Assembly: GCA_023898585.1 (NCBI GenBank)
Contig: CP060229.1
Coordinates: 247,707 to 311,706, forward strand
Length of the DNA: 64,000 bases
Source of the DNA: Candidatus Nomurabacteria bacterium
GTDB lineage: Bacteria; Patescibacteriota; Minisyncoccia; Phycocordibacterales; UBA918
Direction: 5' to 3'
Shown here: positions 8,805-58,328 of the stretch, piece by piece
Position numbering within the stretch: position 1 is the first letter of the stretch
How the letters are laid out: every line of letters starts with the position of its first letter
The notes under the pieces: generated by a model
Databases searched by the model: none
Told to the model about the DNA's origin: nothing
Seen by the model: only the letters and a program-made list of their open reading frames with translations
Translations under genes and position numbers: made by a program

Positions 8805-10496
8805 TTATAGAACATCAACCAGCCTGATTCTCAACTGTCTTCGGCCCATGAAAAAAGACTCTTCTACATGCCCGATTGGTGTGCACAAAGCGCCAACTTC
8901 GGGAGTTTTGGTAAACTCGGTCGGAGTTTGAAAAAAGGCAATCGCTTCAATTTTTCCTTTTTCAGTCTGAAAAATCAGTTTGGTGTGTTCTTTGGCTTTA
9001 CCAAACAATTCAACCGACTGAGGTGAAACATTTTTAAAAGCAAAAATCGGTTTGTGATTGTCAGTGCCAAACGGCGCTAAAATATCCAACTGTCTGACCA
9101 AAAACTGATCAACTTCGTCAAGAGAAATTTCCGCGTCAACCAAAACTTCACTGTCTACCGTCGCCTCGTCGCTGAGCGTCTCCATGGCAGACACTAGCCT
9201 CTCACCAAAGGTAAAAATATGCTCGTCTTTAACGGAAAAACCGCCGGCGACATGATGCCCGCCCATTTCAATAAACACTTCCGAAACAGCCTGCATCAAC
9301 AGCACAACACTAACACCTCCTCCGGAACGACACGACCCTTTATAAACTCCGTTTCCATCAGCTCCCCAAATAAAAGTCGGGCGACCGTGCTCTTCGGCCA
9401 GTTTCCCCGCCACCAAACCAACGAGTGACGGTCGCCATTTTGGATTACCCATAACCAAAACCGAAGGGATTTCTTCCAAATCCTTGATTCGTTTATGAAT
9501 ATCTTTGGTGATAAGCGCCACTTTGGTTTTACGCTCGATATTTAATTTTTCCAGATGTTCGACTCTTTCTCCGGCCTTAGCCAGATCTGTCTCTGCCAAC
9601 ATGAAGAAGGCGTCTTCGGGATTATCCATTCTTGAAGCAGCATTGATGCGCGGACCGATGGTAAAACCAATGTCATCTTCTGTAAGGTAACTTTGATTGA
9701 CTTTAGTTTTTCTGAGCAGTTGTTGTAGGCCGGGGCGACGAGATTTACGCAACACTTTGAGACCAAAGTGAGCCAAAACGCGATTTTCACCAACTAACGG
9801 CACCATGTCGGCTATGGTAGCGAGACCTACCATATCAAGCCACCACTTTTCGTAGCCGGGTGTAATTCCGTAATCATTTCGATTCAGCATGGCCTTGATA
9901 AGCTTAAAAACAACCGCGGCACCGCACAAATCTTTGAAAGGATAATCGCCAAGCTTCGGATTCACCACTGCCACTGCTTCCGGTAAGACTGCTCCCGGTT
10001 CGTGATGATCGGTAATGATAATGTCAATGCCCTGTTTTTTGGCGTAAGCTACTTCAGTCACACTCGAAGTACCACAGTCGATTGTAATTACTACTCCGAC
10101 ATTATCATTTTTAAGTTTATCAATCGCGTCATTACTCAAGCCAAAACCTTCATAGTGACGGTGGGGGATATAATTTTGAAAATTACTGTAGCCGATGGCT
10201 TTAAAAAAATCGTGGAGAATCACTGCCCCGGGAATACCATCGCAATCGTAATCACTGAAAATAGCAATCCGCTCCCCTCTTTCCATGGCCGACTCAAGAC
10301 GAAGACAAGCCGATTCCATGTCATTGAGAAGCTCCGGTCTATGAAGATGATTGTCATAATCGGGCGTTAGAAACTCTTTCGCTACCGATTCTTCGGTGAT
10401 GCCACGTAATTTCAAAAGCCGATTCACCAAGGGTGATGCTAGTTCGGTTATCTCCGGAAAAGACTCGTCTTTAGGCGAAAATTTGTACAATGCCAT
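8805..10496 (-). CDS. recJ: Single-stranded-DNA-specific exonuclease RecJ
   Basis: DHH motifs (SDYDCDGI, ITDHH) and a DHHA1 region. 563 aa. Confidence 0.9.
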   Translation of the reverse strand: MALYKFSPKDESFPEITELASPLVNRLLKLRGITEESVAKEFLTPDYDNHLHRPELLNDMESACLRLESAMERGERIAIFSDYDCDGIPGAVILHDFFKAIGYSNFQNYIPHRHYEGFGLSNDAIDKLKNDNVGVVITIDCGTSSVTEVAYAKKQGIDIIITDHHEPGAVLPEAVAVVNPKLGDYPFKDLCGAAVVFKLIKAMLNRNDYGITPGYEKWWLDMVGLATIADMVPLVGENRVLAHFGLKVLRKSRRPGLQQLLRKTKVNQSYLTEDDIGFTIGPRINAASRMDNPEDAFFMLAETDLAKAGERVEHLEKLNIERKTKVALITKDIHKRIKDLEEIPSVLVMGNPKWRPSLVGLVAGKLAEEHGRPTFIWGADGNGVYKGSCRSGGGVSVVLLMQAVSEVFIEMGGHHVAGGFSVKDEHIFTFGERLVSAMETLSDEATVDSEVLVDAEISLDEVDQFLVRQLDILAPFGTDNHKPIFAFKNVSPQSVELFGKAKEHTKLIFQTEKGKIEAIAFFQTPTEFTKTPEVGALCTPIGHVEESFFMGRRQLRIRLVDVL

Positions 10497-10528
10497 AATC
10501 AGTTTTCGTATGGTAACATTCTTAACGT

Positions 10529-10930
10529 ATGGCTACTATTTTTTCTAAAATCATTGCCCGAGAAATTCCGGCGCAATTCGTCTTTGAAGATGAAGTTTGT
10601 GTGGTGATAATGGATAAGTTTCCGGCTATCAGAGGACAATTATTGGTCATTCCAAAAATTGAAGTTGATTATATTTTTGATTTACCGGAAGATGTTTATT
10701 TACACCTGTTCAAAATCGCCAAAAAGGTGGCCGTCGCAGCTGATAAGGCTTTCGAAACTTTTCGTACTTGCATCATAGTAGAAGGATTCGAAGTCCCGCA
10801 CGTTCATGTGAAAGTCTATCCCATGATGGCTAAAGAACACCTGGGTGTGGCAATTTCCCAAAAACCAAACGAGGCCTCCGACGTAGAACTTTTGCAACAA
10901 GCGGGGCAGATCAGGGCGAAATTACAATAA
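10529..10930 (+). CDS. HIT-family (histidine triad) nucleotide hydrolase
   Basis: EVPHVHVKVYP contains the histidine triad. 133 aa. Confidence 0.85.
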   Translation: MATIFSKIIAREIPAQFVFEDEVCVVIMDKFPAIRGQLLVIPKIEVDYIFDLPEDVYLHLFKIAKKVAVAADKAFETFRTCIIVEGFEVPHVHVKVYPMMAKEHLGVAISQKPNEASDVELLQQAGQIRAKLQ

Positions 10931-31661: not shown

Positions 31662-33191
31662 ATGCCACCAGGATTATTCATGATTGCTCTGGCGTTGACT
31701 TTATTTCTCGGTATTGGAGCTGGATACTTGGTGCGTTACCTGCACTCACAGTCAAAGAAAAATTCGATTGAACTGAAAATCAAAGAACTAGAAATCACAG
31801 CTGAAAAAAAGGCCTTAGCCACGATTGAAGAGGCGGAAGCTAAAGCTGAACGTATTGAGAACGAAGCAAAAACAGAGCGAAAACACCAAGAGGAGAAATT
31901 GGAACAAAAAGAAGAACGTCTTTCTAAACGAGAAGAAATTCTCGACGATCGACAGATTGATATTGATTCACAAAAAGAATCTCTGCAAGAAAAAATTGAT
32001 CAAATTAAATCAATAAAGGCTCAGCTTGATACAAGGGTTGATGAGGCGGATAAAAAACTAGAAGAAGTGGCCAATTTAACCAAGGAGGAAGCGTTCGAAC
32101 AAATAGTAAAGAAGGTTGAGACGGAAAGGGCGGAAGATCTGCGCGTCCGGATCGAAAAACTCGAACGCCAAGGAGAAGAACAATATGGAGCGAAAGCTCA
32201 AAACATTCTTTTGGCCGCTATTCATCGTGCCGGCAATACCGTCTCTCCCAATCTGATGACTTGTCACATTGAAATTCCGAGCGATGATCTAAAAGGAAAA
32301 GTCATCGGCAAAGAAGGACGAAACGTACGAGCTTTCGAGCGAGCAACTGGAGTTGATGTCATGATTGACGAATCTCCCGGCTACATTGTACTCTCTTCAT
32401 TTGATCCGATTCGAAGAGAAATCGCCAGAGTCGCTCTTGAATCTCTACTCAAAGACGGTCGTATACAACCGGCTAAAATTGAAGATGAGGTGGAAAAAGC
32501 CAGAGCCGAAGTGGCTAAAATTGTACGTGAACAAGGAAACAAAGCGACCTATGAAGCCAATGTGCCAAACCTACACCCCGATCTCATCACCATTCTTGGC
32601 AGACTTCATTTTAGAACCAGTTATGGACAAAATGTGCTTTGGCATTCGGTGGAAATGGCTCACATTGCAGAAGTGATAGCTGAAGAAACAGGAGCCAACG
32701 TCGCAGTGGCTCGAGCTGGCGCACTACTGCATGACATCGGCAAGACTGTTAGTCATGAAGTAGCCGGTACTCACGTAGAAATCGGTATTCGTATTTTAGA
32801 GAAATATGGTGTTGATCAACAAGTGATATTGGCCATGCGCGCTCACCACGAAGAGTATCCTTATGAAACTCCGGAATCAATCATCGTCCAAGTGGCTGAT
32901 GCCATTTCCGGGGGAAGGCCCGGGGCTCGCCGTGACTCCATGGAAAACTATGTGAAAAGATTGTCAGACCTTGAGCATATAGCCACCAGTCTTGCCGGAG
33001 TAGAAAAAGCCTTTGCCATTGCCGCCGGTAGAGAAATCCGAGTCCTGGTAAACCCAACCGCTCTCAGCGACTTTGAGACCAACAACCTAGCTCGCAAAAT
33101 AGCAACCGACATAGAAACTCAACTTAGATATCCGGGAGAAATAAAAGTTCACGTCATTCGTGAAACTAGAGTGATAAGTTACGCTCGGTAA
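31662..33191 (+). CDS. rny: Ribonuclease Y
   Basis: N-terminal TM segment, coiled coil, a KH domain and an HD domain (LLHDIGKT, RAHH). Confidence 0.92.
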   Translation: MPPGLFMIALALTLFLGIGAGYLVRYLHSQSKKNSIELKIKELEITAEKKALATIEEAEAKAERIENEAKTERKHQEEKLEQKEERLSKREEILDDRQIDIDSQKESLQEKIDQIKSIKAQLDTRVDEADKKLEEVANLTKEEAFEQIVKKVETERAEDLRVRIEKLERQGEEQYGAKAQNILLAAIHRAGNTVSPNLMTCHIEIPSDDLKGKVIGKEGRNVRAFERATGVDVMIDESPGYIVLSSFDPIRREIARVALESLLKDGRIQPAKIEDEVEKARAEVAKIVREQGNKATYEANVPNLHPDLITILGRLHFRTSYGQNVLWHSVEMAHIAEVIAEETGANVAVARAGALLHDIGKTVSHEVAGTHVEIGIRILEKYGVDQQVILAMRAHHEEYPYETPESIIVQVADAISGGRPGARRDSMENYVKRLSDLEHIATSLAGVEKAFAIAAGREIRVLVNPTALSDFETNNLARKIATDIETQLRYPGEIKVHVIRETRVISYAR

Positions 33192-34418: not shown

Positions 34419-35102
34419 ATGACAAAAGTATCAGATAAAGAAGAGGCTATCCGGTTACGCAAAAATGGATATTCATATAACTTGATTGCTGAAAAGGTGT
34501 CAGTCTCTAAAAGCACTTTATCACTCTGGTTAGCAAAAATACCTTACTCACCAAACAAAGACGTCGTAAAGAGAATTGGAAAGGCCCATGCAGCCGTTAC
34601 AAAGTCTAAACATGAACAGAAACTTGCCAGTTTCAGGGAGGCAGAAAAGTTGGCCAAAATAGACATTGGTGACTTCATAGGCAGGGATCTTTTTATGTTG
34701 GGGTTGGCTTTATATATTGGTGAAGGTGAAAAAAATGACAATGTAGGAGTAATAAATGCCGATCCGAGAATAATCAGGACGTGCATTAGATGGTTGAGGA
34801 AATTTTATGACGTCCCAAATGAAAGTTTTACACTTGCAATACACCTCTATCCAGACAACAACGTCAAAGATTCACTTGAATACTGGTCAAGACAGACAGG
34901 GCTACCGTTGGTGCAGTTTGGAAAAACTCAGATTGATAAACGGAGAAACAAGCGACATAGCAAAAGAAGTAAGCTTCCTTACGGCACCGCACACCTGAGA
35001 GTCCGCGCCGCTGGAAACAAACAACACGGTGTGTTATTATCTCGCCGTATCCAAGCTACAGCGAAGCTGGCTTTGGAGCAAGAACAATATTTGCGGGTGT
35101 AG
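34419..35102 (+). CDS. HTH plus LAGLIDADG-like motif protein, paralog family member A, abutting tRNA-Gly
   Basis: N-terminal HTH (LRKNGYSYNLIAEKVSVSKSTLSLWLAK) and the motif DLFMLGLALYIGEGEK. Start aligned with the three paralogs. The stop TAG at 35100-35102 lies inside tRNA-Gly, which begins at 35093. Confidence 0.7.
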   Translation: MTKVSDKEEAIRLRKNGYSYNLIAEKVSVSKSTLSLWLAKIPYSPNKDVVKRIGKAHAAVTKSKHEQKLASFREAEKLAKIDIGDFIGRDLFMLGLALYIGEGEKNDNVGVINADPRIIRTCIRWLRKFYDVPNESFTLAIHLYPDNNVKDSLEYWSRQTGLPLVQFGKTQIDKRRNKRHSKRSKLPYGTAHLRVRAAGNKQHGVLLSRRIQATAKLALEQEQYLRV

Positions 35103-35163
35103 TTTAGTGGTAAAACACGACGCTTCCAACGTTGAGTCGGGGGTTCGATTCCTCTCACCCGCA
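35093..35163 (+). tRNA. tRNA-Gly (anticodon UCC)
   Basis: Manual fold: acceptor GCGGGTG/CACCCGC, D arm GTTT-AGTGGTA-AAAC, anticodon arm CGACG-cTTCCaa-CGTTG, T arm GGGGG-TTCGATT-CCTCT. No encoded CCA. Confidence 0.8.
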
Positions 35164-35207
35164 CTAGCACAAGAAAACCGGCCTCTTGCCGGTTTTCTTG
35201 TGCTAGC
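35164..35207 (+). terminator. Perfect 19-bp hairpin right after tRNA-Gly, shared with the tRNA-Pro locus
   Basis: CTAGCACAAGAAAACCGGC-ctctt-GCCGGTTTTCTTGTGCTAG. Confidence 0.6.
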
Positions 35208-35214
35208 AGGTTGA

Positions 35215-35290
35215 AGTGAGCAAACTGCTTTGCTCATGTGAGGAATCGAAGGACGGAACGATGTGAGGAAGAATGACGAACGAGCGAGTC
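35215..35290 (+). repeat. Conserved tRNA-downstream element, copy A
   Basis: AGTGAGCAAACTGCTTTGCTCATGTGAGGAATCGAAGGACGGAACGATG... is close to 53792-53842. It contains the hairpin TGAGCAAA-ctgc-TTTGCTCA and an inverted T-loop-like GGAATCGAAGG. Confidence 0.7.
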
Positions 35291-35330
35291 GGGGTCGAGA
35301 AAAATTTTCGCAGAACATTTATTCGTGACA

Positions 35331-35349
35331 GATTCCTCTCATCCACACC
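35331..35349 (+). repeat. Degenerate direct copy of the tRNA-Gly(UCC) 3' end
   Basis: GATTCCTCTCATCCACACC versus the tRNA 3' end GATTCCTCTCACCCGCACT. Confidence 0.5.
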
Positions 35350-35367
35350 ATCAAGCCACCCTTTCGC

Positions 35368-35987: not shown

Positions 35988-36707
35988 TTACTTTTCAAGA
36001 GAAAATTCTCCAAGTATTTTCTGTTGGTAGACATGACCAGCATCAGTGACTGCAGAGAAGTAGATTTTTTCTACTTTCATCTCCACCACTCCTATCTCTC
36101 GATTAAATTTTGGATGTTTGATTAAACCCTTATGTTCTCCAGCTAAATATCCAATAGACATGTGGGGGTTGTAATTTTTGTATCGGTATTCTGGATGAAG
36201 ATCAAAGGGAATGGAATCTGCCAGCTGGTTGTGTAGAACGAAAATATTTCCATTCCTATCGTAGACTTCGCGAAAAATAGTTCCAGGGAAGTAATTTATA
36301 TTACCCAACTCGACAGAAAATTTAGGGAAGTTCTGCACAACCTTCTCGACAGAGCTACGTATTGAGTCAACATCTCTCTCTTGAAATTGTTTACCCATTC
36401 TACCTGGAATCATCAGTGTTATGTGCATATCCTCACTAGAGAGCCAGAGATTTGCCAGACTAGCAGGAACCATAGCTTGTAAATTATCGGATACAACTCT
36501 CATATGTTCATAACAACTTGGGTGTAACGGTACATTAATGCAACACAAGGTCGTTGAATCTTCCCGCCACAATGTATCACCAAAAGTTTTCTTGGTGTTT
36601 TCCCAGATCTCATCGAAATGTTTTATTTGTACTTGGTGGGTACGCATGCTATCCATTACGTTATTAACATCTCTCCTTATAATACTGCTTTTACAACGAT
36701 TGTTCAC
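35988..36707 (-). CDS. 2H-phosphoesterase superfamily protein (LigT / 2',3'-cyclic phosphodiesterase-like)
   Basis: Two H-x-T/S-x motifs (MHITLMIPG and PHMSIGY) in the expected spacing. The start may be an internal Met. Confidence 0.65.
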   Translation of the reverse strand: MNNRCKSSIIRRDVNNVMDSMRTHQVQIKHFDEIWENTKKTFGDTLWREDSTTLCCINVPLHPSCYEHMRVVSDNLQAMVPASLANLWLSSEDMHITLMIPGRMGKQFQERDVDSIRSSVEKVVQNFPKFSVELGNINYFPGTIFREVYDRNGNIFVLHNQLADSIPFDLHPEYRYKNYNPHMSIGYLAGEHKGLIKHPKFNREIGVVEMKVEKIYFSAVTDAGHVYQQKILGEFSLEK

Positions 36708-53245: not shown

Positions 53246-53491
53246 GACTCACCCTCGCTTTTTTTTAACAGGAGTGTTATATTTTGCTGACTTAAATCAC
53301 GTTTGTGGTTTTTGTTTGGGTGATCGGGGTGTATCTTCGACTGCGGGCTCGATACATTCCCTCTTTGTTCGGTCATGGTGTGCTATGCAAGCGTAGCTTG
53401 CATCAAGAAATTTTTACCGAGAAGCCGTAAGCAAGCTTCCGCTGCTCGGGAAAAATTTCTTGACTTCTGCACACCACGACGCTCACGACAT

Positions 53492-53533
53492 CGGGGTGTA
53501 GCATAATGGTAGTGTACGCGGTTTGGGGTCTGT
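53492..53533 (+). repeat. 5' fragment of tRNA-Pro (about 42 nt, diverges after the anticodon loop)
   Basis: CGGGGTGTAGCATAATGGTAGTGTACGCGGTTTGGGG, then unrelated sequence. Confidence 0.6.
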
Positions 53534-53562
53534 CCTTTCAATTTTCATATTTTTGGCTACGT

Positions 53563-53633
53563 CGGGGTGTAGCATAATGGTAGTGTACGCGGTTTGGGAC
53601 CGCGCGGCCCGGGTTCGATTCCCGGCTCCCCGA
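53563..53633 (+). tRNA. tRNA-Pro (anticodon UGG); U6-U67 mismatch and two G-U pairs in the D stem
   Basis: CGGGGTG-TA-GCAT-AATGGTA-GTGT-A-CGCGG-tTTGGGa-CCGCG-CGGC-CCGGG-TTCGATT-CCCGG-CTCCCCG-A. The architecture parallels E. coli tRNA-Pro(UGG). Confidence 0.7.
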
Positions 53634-53704
53634 CGTAGCCCGAAATGGAAATTGAAAGAATTGACCAACAAGCTGGGAGCTTGTTGTGGCTTCGAAGAAG
53701 GCGT

Positions 53705-53733
53705 GGCCCGGGTTCGATTCCCGGCTCCCCGAC
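53705..53733 (+). repeat. 3' half copy of tRNA-Pro (T arm plus acceptor 3' strand)
   Basis: GGCCCGGGTTCGATTCCCGGCTCCCCGACA. Confidence 0.7.
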
Positions 53734-53736
53734 AAA

Positions 53737-53778
53737 CACAAGAAAAGTCAGGTTTATTTATTCCTGGCTTTTCTTGTG
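53737..53778 (+). terminator. Hairpin related to the one after tRNA-Gly(UCC)
   Basis: CACAAGAAAAG-tcaggtttatttattcctgg-CTTTTCTTGTG. Confidence 0.5.
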
Positions 53779-53791
53779 GTAAGGAGGGACT

Positions 53792-53842
53792 AGTGAGCAA
53801 ACTGCTTTGCTCACGTCGGGAATCGAACGGCGGAGCGATGAG
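53792..53842 (+). repeat. Conserved tRNA-downstream element, copy B
   Basis: AGTGAGCAAACTGCTTTGCTCACGTCGGGAATCGAACGGCGGAGCGATGAG versus copy A at 35215. Confidence 0.7.
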
Positions 53843-53911
53843 TTTACGAACAAGTGAGCCGTGTCCCATGGCACCGAGTATTTTGTGGCGCTAAGGATAC
53901 AGAATACGCTA

Positions 53912-53944
53912 GTGACCGTCAGGACGATTCTCCGCTCCCCGACA
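53912..53944 (+). repeat. Degenerate copy of the tRNA-Pro 3' end
   Basis: GACGATTCTCCGCTCCCCGACAAATG. Confidence 0.5.
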
Positions 53945-54008
53945 AATGAAAACCTGCTTGAATAACAAATTCATGCAGTTTTTCGTTATAATTCAAAAAT
54001 TGTGAGCC

Positions 54009-54322
54009 TTAGATTCCCAAATCAGACAACACCTCCTCAAAAGTATCCAGACGAGTTACATGCGGGTGAAAATGAAAAACTGTTAGATTGTTATACTCAC
54101 CAATTGCGTAGACCTTGGCATTATTTGATAACGCGGCCCCCATTTCAACAAACATTCCTGTCCCTGACTTATCACCAAGTATAATAAACACATCAGCGTC
54201 TCTTGCTCCAGCGATATCATTTTCAGCGAATTCCTGAACCTTCTCTAAATGATCCTCATACGGCCTTTTTACATCCGCACCTTCTACCGCAGTCCAATCG
54301 TGAGTACATTCATGACCTTTTT
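54009..54322 (-). pseudogene. N-terminally truncated nucleoside 2-deoxyribosyltransferase-like gene fragment
   Basis: The frame ...VEGADVKRPYEDHLEKVQEFAENDIAGARDADVFIILGDKSGTGMFVEMGAALSNNAKVYAIGEY... has no ATG start and is opened by an in-frame TAG. The track ORF begins at an internal GTG. Confidence 0.45.
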
Positions 54323-54497
54323 TCTAACATACTGATCATTCACTTTGTTTCACTCATCACTGCTGTTCTTGATGCTATATAAAATTTCATAATCATTATG
54401 TAAGTTAATGAGTATAACACACAAACTAAACTCAGACGTTTGTTTCACGTGGAACACTTCCCTGCTGTTTCATGTAAAAACATCATTTGAACTTTAA

Positions 54498-54728
54498 TTA
54501 AGTTCCAATATATTCAAATCTAGGCTTTTCCACTCCGCCAACCGTAACTTTCTCACAAAACATGTCCTTAGGTCGTACCCACAAGGAATTTAGACCGAAA
54601 TCCTCAGAATCATATAAAGCTCTATAAACAACAAGATCTTCCAGCGTCTCACTATGCTTAGCAACTCCAATAACTTCGTATTCATTACCTTTGTAATGTC
54701 TGTATTTTCCTAGTTTCACGTCAAACAT
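54498..54728 (-). CDS. DUF1653-like small protein
   Basis: KYRHYKGNEYEVIGVAKHSETLEDLVVYRALY...WVRP. Start at MFDVKLG. Confidence 0.6.
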   Translation of the reverse strand: MFDVKLGKYRHYKGNEYEVIGVAKHSETLEDLVVYRALYDSEDFGLNSLWVRPKDMFCEKVTVGGVEKPRFEYIGT

Positions 54729-54732
54729 TATT

Positions 54733-55143
54733 CTAGTATACATTTGATAAGTACTTAACAGAAGCATATTTTTCACGTGGAACCACTCTGATTGCTAAAA
54801 CATCTATTTGCCAATTACCTGCATACTTTTTCTCAGAAATCCAACTTTCAATTGCTTTGGTAAGCCTTTTTATCTTAGAATAGTGTACGTTTTCCTCCGG
54901 ACGCCAAGTTCCACTTGAAATAGCCTTGTTTAGATCATCTTTAGTTTCATATGAAACAGTCTTTACCTCAACAAAATGCACCTTTCCGTCAGTTCCACGT
55001 GCAACAATGTCAATTTCACCCCATTTTTTAAGATAATTACGTTCAATTACAATAAAACTCAGCTTTCCAAGATATTTGGTAGCAATTTCCTCACCCAGAG
55101 CACCAGTTTTGTTTCTTTCTCCCTTTTTATTTTGCTGTTCCAT
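54733..55143 (-). CDS. yraN: UPF0102 / YraN-family endonuclease-like protein
   Basis: GEEIATKYL...GEIDIVARGTDGKVHFVEVKT. Confidence 0.75.
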   Translation of the reverse strand: MEQQNKKGERNKTGALGEEIATKYLGKLSFIVIERNYLKKWGEIDIVARGTDGKVHFVEVKTVSYETKDDLNKAISSGTWRPEENVHYSKIKRLTKAIESWISEKKYAGNWQIDVLAIRVVPREKYASVKYLSNVY

Positions 55144-55370
55144 GTTTAACGACTTTGATATGTTCCACGTGAAACGTCAAATATTTATTTCTAGTATTTG
55201 TTTCATGTGAAATACGGCCTTAATTATAGCAGTATCGTATAAAGGACACTAGGGTTTGAAAAGTGTGGATTGTCCTTTATCCCCATATCAACTGGTTATC
55301 CACAGTTATTAACATACGAAAAACACCTAGTAGGGGTGTCTTTCGTATTTTGTTGAGGCGTCATTATTTG

Positions 55371-55568
55371 TGCGGGTAGGGGTAATCGAAACCTGACGGT
55401 CTCTAAATTCACCCCAAGGGCACTTCCAACGACTTTGTCGAAGGGGCGCGCCACTCATTAAGAGCCGCGGGTCACGCCTCGACTGTCGTACTCTCTTCGC
55501 TCCGTGCGACATGTCTCCGGCGGTTTTGATTACCACGAAAGGTGCGCAGGCACCTTTCTCCTACCCGC
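55371..55568 (-). ncRNA. tRNA-Gly(GCC)-derived structured element of about 198 nt (tRNA 5' and 3' ends flanking a hairpin-rich insert); interrupted pseudo-tRNA or tRNA-like RNA
   Basis: On the minus strand it starts GCGGGTAGG (the tRNA starts GCGGGTATAG) and ends CAGGTTTCGATTACCCCTACCCGCACA (the tRNA ends GGGGTTTCGATTACCCCTACCCGCACCA). The insert contains AAAGGTGC-ctgc-GCACCTTT and CGAC-aaa-GTCG hairpins. Confidence 0.45.
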
Positions 55569-55573
55569 AGTCG

Positions 55574-55600
55574 AAAAAAGCCCTTTGTGGGGGCTTTTTT
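55574..55600 (-). terminator. Terminator after tRNA-Gly(GCC)
   Basis: Minus strand: AAAAAAGCCCCCACAAAGGGCTTTTTT. Confidence 0.65.
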
Positions 55601-55602
55601 CT

Positions 55603-55676
55603 TGGTGCGGGTAGGGGTAATCGAAACCCCGTCTTCTGATTGGCAACCAGACGTTCTACCACTAAACTATACCCGC
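55603..55676 (-). tRNA. tRNA-Gly (anticodon GCC), CCA encoded
   Basis: Minus strand: GCGGGTA-TA-GTTT-AGTGGTA-GAAC-G-TCTGG-tTGCCaa-TCAGA-AGAC-GGGGT-TTCGATT-ACCCC-TACCCGC-A-CCA. Confidence 0.85.
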
Positions 55677-56390: not shown

Positions 56391-57047
56391 TTATAGTTCC
56401 TTTTTCAACATTTCAACCCAAACAAGCAGTTTCTGCTTTGCCAAAACGCTATTTAACAAAGTGTTTCCTGTGCCTTTATGGGCTGACTTGGTTCGACTTG
56501 ATACGAATTGTGGCTTACCAAAGGCAGAAACTGAAAGTTTGATTTGCTTTGACCACCATCTTGTGTTTTTTTCAATTGAACTGCCTTGAGGGAGTAAAAG
56601 CCAAAATTTGATGCTTGTTTTTTCCGCACCAATGTATTCATGTAAAAACTTGATAAAAATTTGATGAGATTCAGCTCGGTTAACAGACAAGCGAATCCGA
56701 TTGCTTGTGTTAAGATCTCCAGCCACCAGATAAATCATCAACCCAGCAACGAAAAGGGGATTGTTTTTGTAATGTTTGAACTCAGTTTCGGCGGAGCGGA
56801 CAGCCTCGCGGTAGCGTGCGACTCGCTCTGTACCGCGCGCTTTATTTATCAGCTTCAGTCGTTTGGCGTTTTCAGCGCCGGCGCGCTTAACGTTTTGCTT
56901 GGTAACTTGTGCTGAAAAAGCCTTATTTTTCAACCATTTTGAGGCGGTGGACTTCGAAATGTCACAGTACTTGGCAATCTCTTCTAAAGTAAAACCGCGC
57001 TTACGCAAACGCACTGCCTGATCGTATTTTTCCTTATTTCGAACCAT
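56391..57047 (-). CDS. HTH plus LAGLIDADG-like motif protein, paralog C
   Basis: LRKRGFTLEEIAKYCDISKSTASKWLK HTH and the motif NPLFVAGLMIYLVAGDL. In tandem with paralog D. Confidence 0.65.
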   Translation of the reverse strand: MVRNKEKYDQAVRLRKRGFTLEEIAKYCDISKSTASKWLKNKAFSAQVTKQNVKRAGAENAKRLKLINKARGTERVARYREAVRSAETEFKHYKNNPLFVAGLMIYLVAGDLNTSNRIRLSVNRAESHQIFIKFLHEYIGAEKTSIKFWLLLPQGSSIEKNTRWWSKQIKLSVSAFGKPQFVSSRTKSAHKGTGNTLLNSVLAKQKLLVWVEMLKKEL

Positions 57048-57122
57048 ATCGTGTGTATATTATATACTAATTCTATTTGTTCGATTTGGGTTATTCAGAC
57101 CAAAGCATGTTAAAATCTTTTT

Positions 57123-58027: not shown

Positions 58028-58210
58028 GCTGTCATTGTATCAGAAATCTGAACGATAAAAGCACCTAATTAGGCGCTTAAATCATGTGTGCACCTGCCAG
58101 GACTCGGTCACAAGTCGCTCCCTTCAGTCGCGCTCGCGACCCCGCCTCCTTACGCTTCACTCCAGTCCGGCTTTCGAGTTTGCCCCCAACAATGCGAGAC
58201 CAAACTAAAA

Positions 58211-58255
58211 ACAACCCAGTTTTATTGGGTTGTTTTTAGTTTGGTGCACCCGCCA
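58211..58255 (-). terminator. Perfect 19-bp palindromic hairpin immediately 3' of tRNA-Arg
   Basis: CCAAACTAAAAACAACCCA-gttttat-TGGGTTGTTTTTAGTTTGG. Confidence 0.6.
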
Positions 58256-58328
58256 GGATTCGAACCTGGGACGACGGTTCCGAAGACCGTAATGATAATC
58301 CGCTTCACCACGGGTGCAAAATGTACTG
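58253..58328 (-). tRNA. tRNA-Arg (anticodon UCG), CCA encoded
   Basis: Minus strand: GCACCCG-TG-GTGA-AGCGGATTA-TCAT-T-ACGGT-cTTCGga-ACCGT-CGTC-CCAGG-TTCGAAT-CCTGG-CGGGTGC-A-CCA. Confidence 0.8.

Follow-up and report, generated by a model that had tools for sequence, protein, structure and literature searches.

A 64,000-nucleotide (nt) stretch of a Candidatus Nomurabacteria bacterium genome (contig CP060229.1, positions 247,707 to 311,706), referred to below as the window, contains four transfer RNA (tRNA) genes called by ARAGORN and Rfam, namely those for tRNA-Gly(UCC), tRNA-Pro(UGG), tRNA-Gly(GCC) and tRNA-Arg(UCG). When the sequence 3' of these genes was read, all four were found to be followed by a module of the same layout, in which a terminator-like palindrome precedes a reverse complement of the 3' end of that very tRNA (A'), some 100 nt of further sequence, and a direct copy of the tRNA 3' end (A2). 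A conserved hairpin (H3) interrupts A', and A2 spans the region from the middle of the T-loop to just past the discriminator base. These modules look like members of a large, uncatalogued set of ~100-200 nt elements that lack an open reading frame (ORF) and are situated at the 3' ends of tRNA and transfer-messenger RNA (tmRNA) genes in Patescibacteria.

An initial annotation of this DNA had described a hairpin, a ~50-nt element and copies of the tRNA 3' end behind tRNA-Gly(UCC) and tRNA-Pro, and each of these features was recovered at the same positions (Table 1), as was an inverted, T-loop-like copy of the adjoining tRNA, which in the Gly-UCC module is 93% complementary to that gene. The proposal of a module at two tRNAs was correct for both and understated its extent, since tRNA-Gly(GCC) and tRNA-Arg(UCG) carry one as well. 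The 22-nt hairpin sequence AGTGAGCAAACTGCTTTGCTCA has exactly two copies in the window (35215-35236 and 53792-53813; 0 expected from 100 shuffles), with 6 differences between the 49-nt stretches that begin there. The Gly-UCC and Pro elements have in common an outer terminator stem (CACAAGAAAA/TTTTCTTGTG), H3 and the start of the core, and they diverge afterwards; the Gly-UCC palindrome holds its A-run and T-run within the stem. The best 23-mer direct copy within 400 nt downstream of each tRNA matches at 17/23 (Gly-UCC), 18/23 (Pro), 23/23 (Gly-GCC) and 17/23 (Arg) positions, and such matches were reached by 0, 0, 0 and 1 of 2000 shuffles each, so the partial tRNA copies are significant behind every one of the four genes.

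Table 1. Coordinates of the tRNA genes of the window and of the parts of the modules that follow them.
Feature	Positions	Strand	Basis or remarks
tRNA-Gly(UCC), target gene, whose 3' end (A) recurs as copies	35093..35164	+	ARAGORN; Rfam tRNA 69.7 bits
Gly-UCC terminator-like perfect palindrome	35164..35206	+	19-bp arms 35164-35182/35188-35206, 5-nt loop, 100% complementary
H3, conserved hairpin AGTGAGCAAACTGCTTTGCTCA, 5' landmark of the family	35215..35236	+	exact-match count
A'T of Gly-UCC, complement of own T-loop and T-stem 3' strand (TGTGAGGAATCGAA)	35237..35250	+	93% complementary to 35144-35157
Gly-UCC core, degenerate type-1 structured RNA	35251..35330	+	alignment score 98 vs shuffle maximum 21; weak fold, z = -1.2
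A2 of Gly-UCC, displaced or duplicated direct copy	35331..35353	+	83% identical to 35147-35169; 0/2000 shuffles
Orphan tRNA-Pro 5' half	53488..53527	+	98% identical to 53559-53598; absent in near-identical strain L204
tRNA-Pro(UGG)	53563..53634	+	ARAGORN, Rfam; complementary arms on both sides 53527-53567/53628-53666
tRNA-Pro 3' part of older split gene; A segment preceding the Pro element	53701..53736	+	33 nt, 97% identical
Terminator-like hairpin of Pro element	53737..53778	+	inverted-repeat finder
Pro element, type-1 core	53785..53942	+	H3 53792-53813; A'T 53814-53830 (CGTCGGGAATCGAACGG)
A2 of Pro element	53925..53946	+	91% copy of tRNA-Pro 3' end
Gly-GCC element, best-preserved in the window	55368..55570	-	fold z = -5.4; identical in strains L203, L204
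Gly-GCC element parts		-	A'acc GCGGGTAGG 55568-55560; H3 (24 nt) 55559-55536; A'T TGGTAATCAAAACC 55535-55522
Terminator-like hairpin between tRNA-Gly(GCC) and element	55572..55602	-	sequence reading
tRNA-Gly(GCC)	55603..55676	-	ARAGORN, Rfam
Arg element, type-1 variant ..TCGAAAGCCGGA..GAGGCGGGGTCGCGAG..ACTTGTGACC	58087..58198	-	A2 GAGTCCTGGCAGGTGCACA at 58105-58087
Terminator-like palindrome after tRNA-Arg	58199..58245	-	20-bp arms, 100% complementary
tRNA-Arg(UCG)	58242..58317	-	ARAGORN, Rfam

The four elements differ in their state of preservation. The Gly-GCC element has a three-way-junction core followed by a perfect 24-nt A2 (GGTTTCGATTACCCCTACCCGCAC) at 55393-55370, and the part of its A' that complements the acceptor 3' strand (A'acc, GCGGGTAGG) consequently has the same letters as the tRNA 5' end. 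A covariance model (R1) scores this element at 143.6 bits by construction, since it belongs to the seed alignment (A4). The Pro element, which follows the 3' part of an older tRNA-Pro, scores 23.5 bits with this model (E = 0.0004-0.0015), has a fold z of -3.0 and is ~80% identical, in a pairwise alignment, to a Pro-linked element in L042 (L numbers denote the loci and strains compared); CGATTCCCGGCTCCCCGAC is present in three copies at the Pro locus, at 53616, 53715 and 53925. The Gly-UCC and Arg elements were not recovered at E < 1 when the window was searched with R1, and their membership of the family rests on pairwise alignments. For example, the first 75 nt of the Gly-UCC element are ~87% identical to an element linked to tRNA-His in another metagenome (L152), with the differences concentrated in A', so that the two have a common scaffold and a distinct tRNA-matching part, and the Arg element (fold z = -0.4) aligns to a tRNA-Phe-linked element (L148) with a score of 48 against a shuffle maximum of 24.

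Comparative searches placed these modules in a widespread family. R1, which was seeded with seven Gly-GCC elements, was applied to the window together with 80 genome loci and returned 14 new matches at E < 0.005, 13 of which are on the same strand as a tRNA and 3' of it (Pro, Arg, or second units after Gly-GCC), the 14th being at a contig start that permits no placement (L025, 99-264). In addition, when metagenomes were scanned for an H3 hairpin with AATCGAA after it, at least 120 loci were recovered. There were 127 matches listed, of which 16 are at contig starts, and of the remaining 111, which are placeable, 89 have a tRNA on the same strand no more than 400 nt upstream of them (median distance 48 nt), compared with 4.7% by chance; those linked to tRNAs cover 28 anticodon classes. 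The initial annotation had named elements at random places away from tRNAs as the outcome that would refute its reading; this outcome is not borne out, and the association with tRNAs is real. Among the 22 'orphan' matches, at least 6 follow tmRNA genes (confirmed by ARAGORN and Rfam), where A' is GTGGAGATGG, the complement of the tmRNA acceptor strand, and further orphans follow tRNA-like ends overlooked by ARAGORN. The covariance model and the metagenome scan together contributed well over 100 further copies, in which A2 is offset from the end of the tRNA by +96 to +265 nt and the cargo never exceeds ~300 nt. No Rfam 15 family matches the elements of the window, either at the gathering score or at E <= 10, and at the gathering score a search of 16 other loci returned nothing on elements, only tRNA, tmRNA, ribosomal RNA and LOOT matches. 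A literature search found no description of these elements.

The ends of the elements are specific to the neighbouring tRNA, as was evident when 89 elements among the matches listed were compared with their own tRNA and with others. A'acc agreed at 6 or more of 7 positions with the own tRNA in 48/89 cases and with other tRNAs in 24/445; for the part of A' that complements the T-loop and T-stem (A'T; at least 10 of 12 positions) the counts were 86/89 and 214/445, and for A2 (at least 13 of 16) they were 49/87 and 8/435. The identity of A2 with the tRNA starts at T-loop positions ~55-60, and in 37 of 48 elements its end falls 0-2 nt past the discriminator; the complementarity of A' to the tRNA extends over 17-23 nt, taking in a 5' half of the T-loop that is absent from A2. 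Where A2 has drifted at T-stem or acceptor positions, A' fits the tRNA only at 17 positions, both sequences (through G·U) at 12 and the copy only at 1. The complementarity of A' and A2 thus stems from their common derivation from the tRNA and not from upkeep of a helix; compensatory changes between A' and A2 were looked for, and there were none. A retro-derived copy of the mature tRNA was considered and rejected, because CCA follows A2 in 5 of 45 cases in which the gene lacks CCA, about the same as for genes that encode it (4 of 49).

Alignment of homologues that follow tRNA-Gly(GCC) in L004, L009, L016, L026, L029 and L042 with the element of the window gave a consensus that comprises a closing helix of A' and A2, H3 as a side hairpin, and a three-way junction from which two more stem-loops extend, the conserved motifs of the core being CGGAG..ATG, GCGAG and GTGAC. 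In 21 model-aligned sequences, 90% of pair cells are paired, compared with 68% in shuffles and 36-41% in slid controls, and compensatory changes are found at 40 of 50 pairs, counts which in such model-fitted alignments lean towards the structure of the model. A separate MAFFT alignment also contains AU/GC swaps in H3 and H5, and was insufficiently structural for a second, broader covariance model. In the helices that do not depend on the tRNA (H3, H5/6 and H7), G·U pairs outnumber A·C mismatches by 30:5 and 27:8, which indicates that the tRNA-sense strand is under selection in single-stranded form. The corresponding counts in the A':A2 helix are 22:13 and 33:31, with only 78-80% of positions in Watson-Crick pairs. 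Therefore, the core is a structured RNA of the sense strand, as judged by covariation and G·U bias, and the closing helix, which has no G·U bias, does not qualify as one. Some elements are located between tRNAs of one operon and abut the tRNA without a hairpin (L090, L148 and L161), and are therefore transcribed in the sense direction. Promoter and terminator consensus scans were uninformative and predicted no promoter for the element. Readings of CTTATGAG...CGAA as a hammerhead or k-turn, which had been made by eye, were abandoned because the motif is variable and lacks G5 and the bulge, and a group I intron was dismissed because the window has no Intron_gpI match even at E <= 10 and the tRNA upstream of each element is complete.

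Several features of the family suggest mobility. At orthologous tRNA-Gly(GCC) sites, an element is present in L004, L009, L016, L026 and L029 and absent from L002, L003, L032 and L206, the last being a relative with 73% amino-acid identity. Tandem arrays, in which each unit closes with its own copy of A and the core types differ, are present in L004, L016, L026, L109 and L083/L199. Among the matches listed, the nearest relative of a core is situated at a different tRNA in 63 of 84 cases and at one with the same anticodon in 21 (25%, vs 5.6% expected), and H3 types have been exchanged among otherwise near-identical elements (L004 vs L009). The most informative locus is L108, where tRNA-Pro is followed by a hybrid 3' fragment that switches after TTCGATTCTC from the Pro type to the Gly-UCC type. 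Next come a trailer and an A', both of Gly type, and a core ~90% identical to the element that accompanies the tRNA-Gly(UCC) gene of this contig at a distance of 1.5 kb. This unit ends in ...CGATTCTC joined to GGCACCCCGAC (...GTGACCGATTCTC, then the Pro 3' end), and both junctions fall within one common T-loop block. Judged from its sequence, L108 is the product to be expected from a single recombination event between a circular unit with a Gly 3' end and the T-loop of a Pro fragment. A second mismatched case is L145, where an element behind tRNA-Ala has a Leu-CAG-type A' (12/12) and a Pro-like A2.

We consider the best explanation, with a probability of about 50%, to be an integrase-less miniature element that integrates into tRNA genes (tDNA), recombines in the T-loop and carries a structured RNA as its sole cargo. 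Its mobile unit would extend from T-loop to T-loop, beginning with a tRNA 3' end (mid T-loop through discriminator) that replaces the target's own, and continuing with a trailer that is usually a terminator-like hairpin, with A' as an inverse copy of the same tRNA 3' end cut by the conserved hairpin at the acceptor/T-stem junction, and with a ~100-nt core that would fold as a three-way-junction RNA. Insertion would take one reciprocal crossover within the target's T-loop region, resembling the attP x attB reaction of tDNA-integrating islands and using a recombinase supplied in trans, so that the gene would remain intact and its original 3' end would be pushed downstream to become A2. The core would be transcribed in the tRNA sense, as a trailer within tRNA operons or through read-through. 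We infer that the intermediate is free, as a circle or in some other form, that recombination is conservative and site-specific, and that the enzyme acts in trans. The suggestion in the initial annotation that the repeats resemble attL and attR holds in outline, given the tRNA/tmRNA 3'-end target, the T-loop-to-discriminator duplication, the patchy presence, the arrays and the T-loop crossover of L108, and among the three options it offered, a miniature tRNA-targeting element fits best.

A number of observations weigh against such an element. The insertion model gives A' no role, and the decay of A' is uncorrelated with that of A2 (rho = 0.10), a misfit with ends that are written at insertion and decay together. 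Selection on the core as RNA means that it has some function, possibly one of the host. No recombinase is encoded within any element; a search for the box II motif in 1.24 Mb of loci gave 2 tyrosine-recombinase-like matches, none of them inside an element, no autonomous larger relative was seen among ~150 copies, and the hairpin pattern had 0 matches in viral contigs. L108 is a single example, as L200 is identical in sequence, and it could in principle stem from short-homology recombination and not from a dedicated enzyme. There is no strain-level pair of filled and empty sites for an element, L203 and L204 being identical to the window across the elements, with the differences from the window clustered in patches of recombination. 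Recombination between direct A repeats can also yield presence/absence differences and tandem arrays, and such events do occur, as is clear from a 71-nt indel between L204 and the window.

Alternatively, the modules may be host or domesticated non-coding RNAs linked to tRNAs, acting as functional 3' trailers or as small RNAs paired with each tRNA, an explanation that we regard as possible and rather unlikely; in the same vein, the RNA that the element carries may still be a tRNA 3'-processing or terminator module, the third option of the initial annotation. A' and A2 would then form a closing helix resembling an acceptor and T-stem, with H3 where the D and anticodon arms would emerge and with excision by RNase P and RNase Z as a possibility, or A' would toggle between the tRNA 3' end and A2 and so switch tRNA maturation; spread would occur by duplication, and the match to the tRNA would be kept by gene conversion or quasi-palindrome correction. 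A host RNA would account for core helices that covary with a sense-strand G·U bias, for an orientation that is strictly co-directional with the tRNA, for copies within tRNA operons, for a Gly-GCC element that folds with a z of -5.4 and whose 5' end equals the tRNA 5' acceptor strand, for the continued complementarity of A' to the tRNA where A2 has drifted (the 17, 12 and 1 cases above), and for the excess of same-anticodon relatives among cores (25% vs 5.6%). It is harder to reconcile with a closing helix devoid of RNA-type selection (G·U about equal to A·C, 78-80% Watson-Crick, no compensatory changes), with fairly close relatives whose orthologous tRNAs lack the element, and with degenerate copies such as Gly-UCC (z = -1.2) and Arg (z = -0.4). 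One tRNA may also head a tandem array of differing core types, the A' of some copies fits another tRNA (L108 and L145), and a terminator-like hairpin usually separates the tRNA from an element for which no promoter is predicted.

A role for A' as a target-recognition segment is less probable again, and can be pictured in two ways. A folded single strand of DNA or RNA could pair A' with A and thereby rebuild a duplex tRNA-gene end as a recombination site, or the RNA could act as a guide that brings an enzyme (a recombinase, nuclease or reverse transcriptase) to the 3' end of the tRNA. The 17-23 nt over which A' complements the tRNA, among them the T-loop 5' half missing from A2, would suit such a purpose, as would a structure that is kept while its sequence varies, an asymmetry between strands in the mismatches that the core tolerates, a side hairpin that breaks one strand only, and near-identical scaffolds with different targets, as in the Gly-UCC and His-linked L152 elements (87% identical, differing mainly in A'). 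No associated protein was found, however, the LAGLIDADG-like neighbour described below being independent; CCA is not enriched after A2 (5/45), so there is no sign of complementary DNA made from mature tRNA; and the L108 unit retained a Gly-type A' at a Pro target, which implies that A' need not match the target and argues against strict guidance. It is a doubtful proposition that A' is a programmable recognition segment, with which an RNA or folded strand would read the tRNA or tmRNA end by pairing and direct insertion by a host or trans-acting enzyme; if true, it would amount to a protein-light, retargetable tDNA-insertion system on ~150 nt. The least probable explanation, close to refuted, is that the modules are decayed remnants of integrase-bearing islands or prophages from which nearly everything has been deleted, the 'deleted integrative element' of the initial annotation. 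A tDNA with a displaced direct 3' fragment is the standard mark of an island (PMC4383910; PMC9897764), and tmRNA genes are likewise targeted. Against such an origin, the interiors are homologous, covarying structured RNAs conserved across genomes and 28 or more anticodon classes, the sizes fall within the narrow range given above for the position of A2, no integrase fragment was found by the box II motif search of the 1.24 Mb of loci, and known islands measure 9-121 kb (PMC9897764).

Comparison with known systems helps to define what is distinctive about the proposed miniature element. Islands that integrate into tDNA are recognized by their position at a tRNA or tmRNA gene, which they restore while displacing a fragment of its 3' end, by att sites that in many cases centre on the T-stem region, and by tandem arrays (PMC4383910), and range from 9 to 121 kb (PMC9897764). 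As in islands of the Islander type, the tRNA or tmRNA gene at our elements is intact and a displaced direct 3' fragment is found at the far end, the block of identity extends from the T-arm to the 3' end, and tandem arrays occur. In one hybrid locus (L108, identical to L200) a Gly 3' end seems to have travelled at the left side of the unit, as it would in an attP, although a free attP form was not among the copies seen. Unlike these islands, the elements are 100-200 nt long, encode neither an integrase nor any other ORF, have a structured RNA as sole cargo, carry an extra inverted copy of the target 3' end that is split by a hairpin, and occupy many, possibly most, of the tRNAs of a ~1-Mb genome. 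They are not assigned to the island family because an integrase was looked for and found to be lacking. A likeness to miniature inverted-repeat transposable elements and other integrase-less elements mobilized in cis is seen in their shortness, the lack of ORFs, the many copies per genome, the arrays, the decaying copies and a presumed dependence on an enzyme supplied in trans. Miniature inverted-repeat transposable elements are defined by terminal inverted repeats of their own and a short target-site duplication of fixed length. Neither is present in our elements, whose repeats are tRNA-specific copies of tRNA ends of 17-24 nt, with A' internal behind a hairpin, and for which no autonomous partner was found.

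Integron attC sites and the attP(+) site of CTX-phi are recombined as folded single strands by IntI or XerCD, and contain an R''/R' core or dif-like arms. Their likeness to the elements, as read from sequence, is limited to a layout of inverted repeat and variable middle, in that an imperfect inverted repeat surrounds a variable structured middle, structure is conserved over sequence, the strands are asymmetric and the units of an array each end in a recombination core. No integron integrase, R'/R'' core motif or dif site accompanies the elements, their arms copy a host tRNA end, and their middle has conserved motifs and an RNA-type G·U bias. Terminal structures that resemble tRNA recruit RNase P, RNase Z or the CCA-adding enzyme. 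Like the tmRNA domain, mascRNA/MALAT1 (PMC8457004) and viral examples of this kind, the elements have ends that can pair as an acceptor-like plus T-stem-like helix, with a stem that stops at a discriminator-like base. They differ in that the T-loop is closed by pairing, the helix copies the adjacent tRNA and selection on it is not detectable. Introns of tRNA genes, which occur in the same phylum, are a further instance of selfish RNA elements tolerated in the tRNA genes of reduced genomes; these reside in the anticodon loop and are spliced out, whereas our elements lie 3' of the gene with the tRNA end duplicated, and match no group I model.

If the interpretation as a miniature tDNA-integrating element is correct, the integration into tRNA genes known from phages and islands also exists in a gene-free form, consisting of a small structured RNA and copies of the target end, which has colonized many tRNA and tmRNA genes in ~1-Mb Patescibacteria genomes. 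The question of which enzyme recombines T-loops, and of a role for RNA or single strands in the process, would then become testable in genomes where genes of mobile elements are few. The family is also a widespread structured RNA that is new relative to Rfam 15. For annotation, it matters that the modules yield tRNA 3' fragments and a nested tRNA-Pro that can be misread by tRNA finders and island finders.

Other core types were observed within the same A'...A2 frame. A second and third type (L004 3944-4193, L016 3908-4080, the Pro locus of L047, L156, L168, L184 and L188) have the form ..CTTTTCC..GGAAAAG-CACCTG or GGTGTACTG, followed by a stem with a (C)UGUAA(G) loop and then GAT..., and these may be separate RNA families in a common insertion frame. 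The type-2 core pattern had 2 matches in viral contigs, neither linked to an element: one falls within a coding region, and ~2.1 kb separates the other from the sole tRNA of its locus. At L087 (~10350-10545) and L122, elements with a tRNA-His-type A2 come after a conserved sequence that ends in ..ACAGTTCGAACATCCTCCACGACGTCGCCCA; this upstream sequence is recognized by neither ARAGORN nor Rfam, and may be an unusual or intron-containing tRNA-His-like gene. A LOOT RNA (RF03000, 71.4 bits) at L095 6386-6515 shares its contig with an element and is apparently unrelated to it.

Three of the four tRNAs in the window are preceded by paralogous LAGLIDADG-like proteins of ~220 amino acids, with a fourth paralogue in tandem, and homologues across Patescibacteria have a same-strand tRNA within 250 nt downstream in 65 of 80 loci. 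These proteins were rejected as a partner enzyme because they are present in just 4 of 120 loci selected for the element, which makes their association with tRNAs an independent phenomenon; a repeat search in the window found no old 5' tRNA parts, the sign of a split gene, upstream of their ORFs. The tRNA-Gly(UCC) locus is flanked by an ORF for a LigT-like/2'-5' RNA ligase (35988-36707, minus strand) and by RNase Y (31662-33191, plus strand), which would be of interest if the RNA of the element proves to be processed.

The tRNA-Pro locus has a history of its own. Between the halves of an older tRNA-Pro is a 171-nt unit in which a complete tRNA-Pro is framed by two arms, left and right, that are complementary to each other, such that the nested tRNA-Pro sits in the anticodon-loop region of the older one, and this arrangement is also found in the distant genome L016. 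Strain L204 lacks the left 71 nt of the unit, through a 37-nt repeat.

Strains L203 and L204 match the window exactly outside two patches of 7-15% divergence (54300-54900 and 56700-57100); these cover an ORF at 54498-54776, the UPF0102 gene and one LAGLIDADG-like paralogue, a pattern of recent homologous recombination. The palindromic motif GTTTCACGTGGAAC has eight copies in and around the UPF0102 gene (54442-55213), is also seen in L003, L016, L026 and L029, and at up to 3 mismatches matches the window 20 times vs 6.6 expected. Sequences resembling DnaA boxes adjoin its copies at 55277-55304 (TTATCCACA at 55296-55304), and the cumulative GC-skew minimum is at ~56-60 kb of the window. The region with GTTTCACGTGGAAC and the DnaA boxes is probably the replication origin region, conserved beside the cluster of Arg, Gly and Pro tRNAs.

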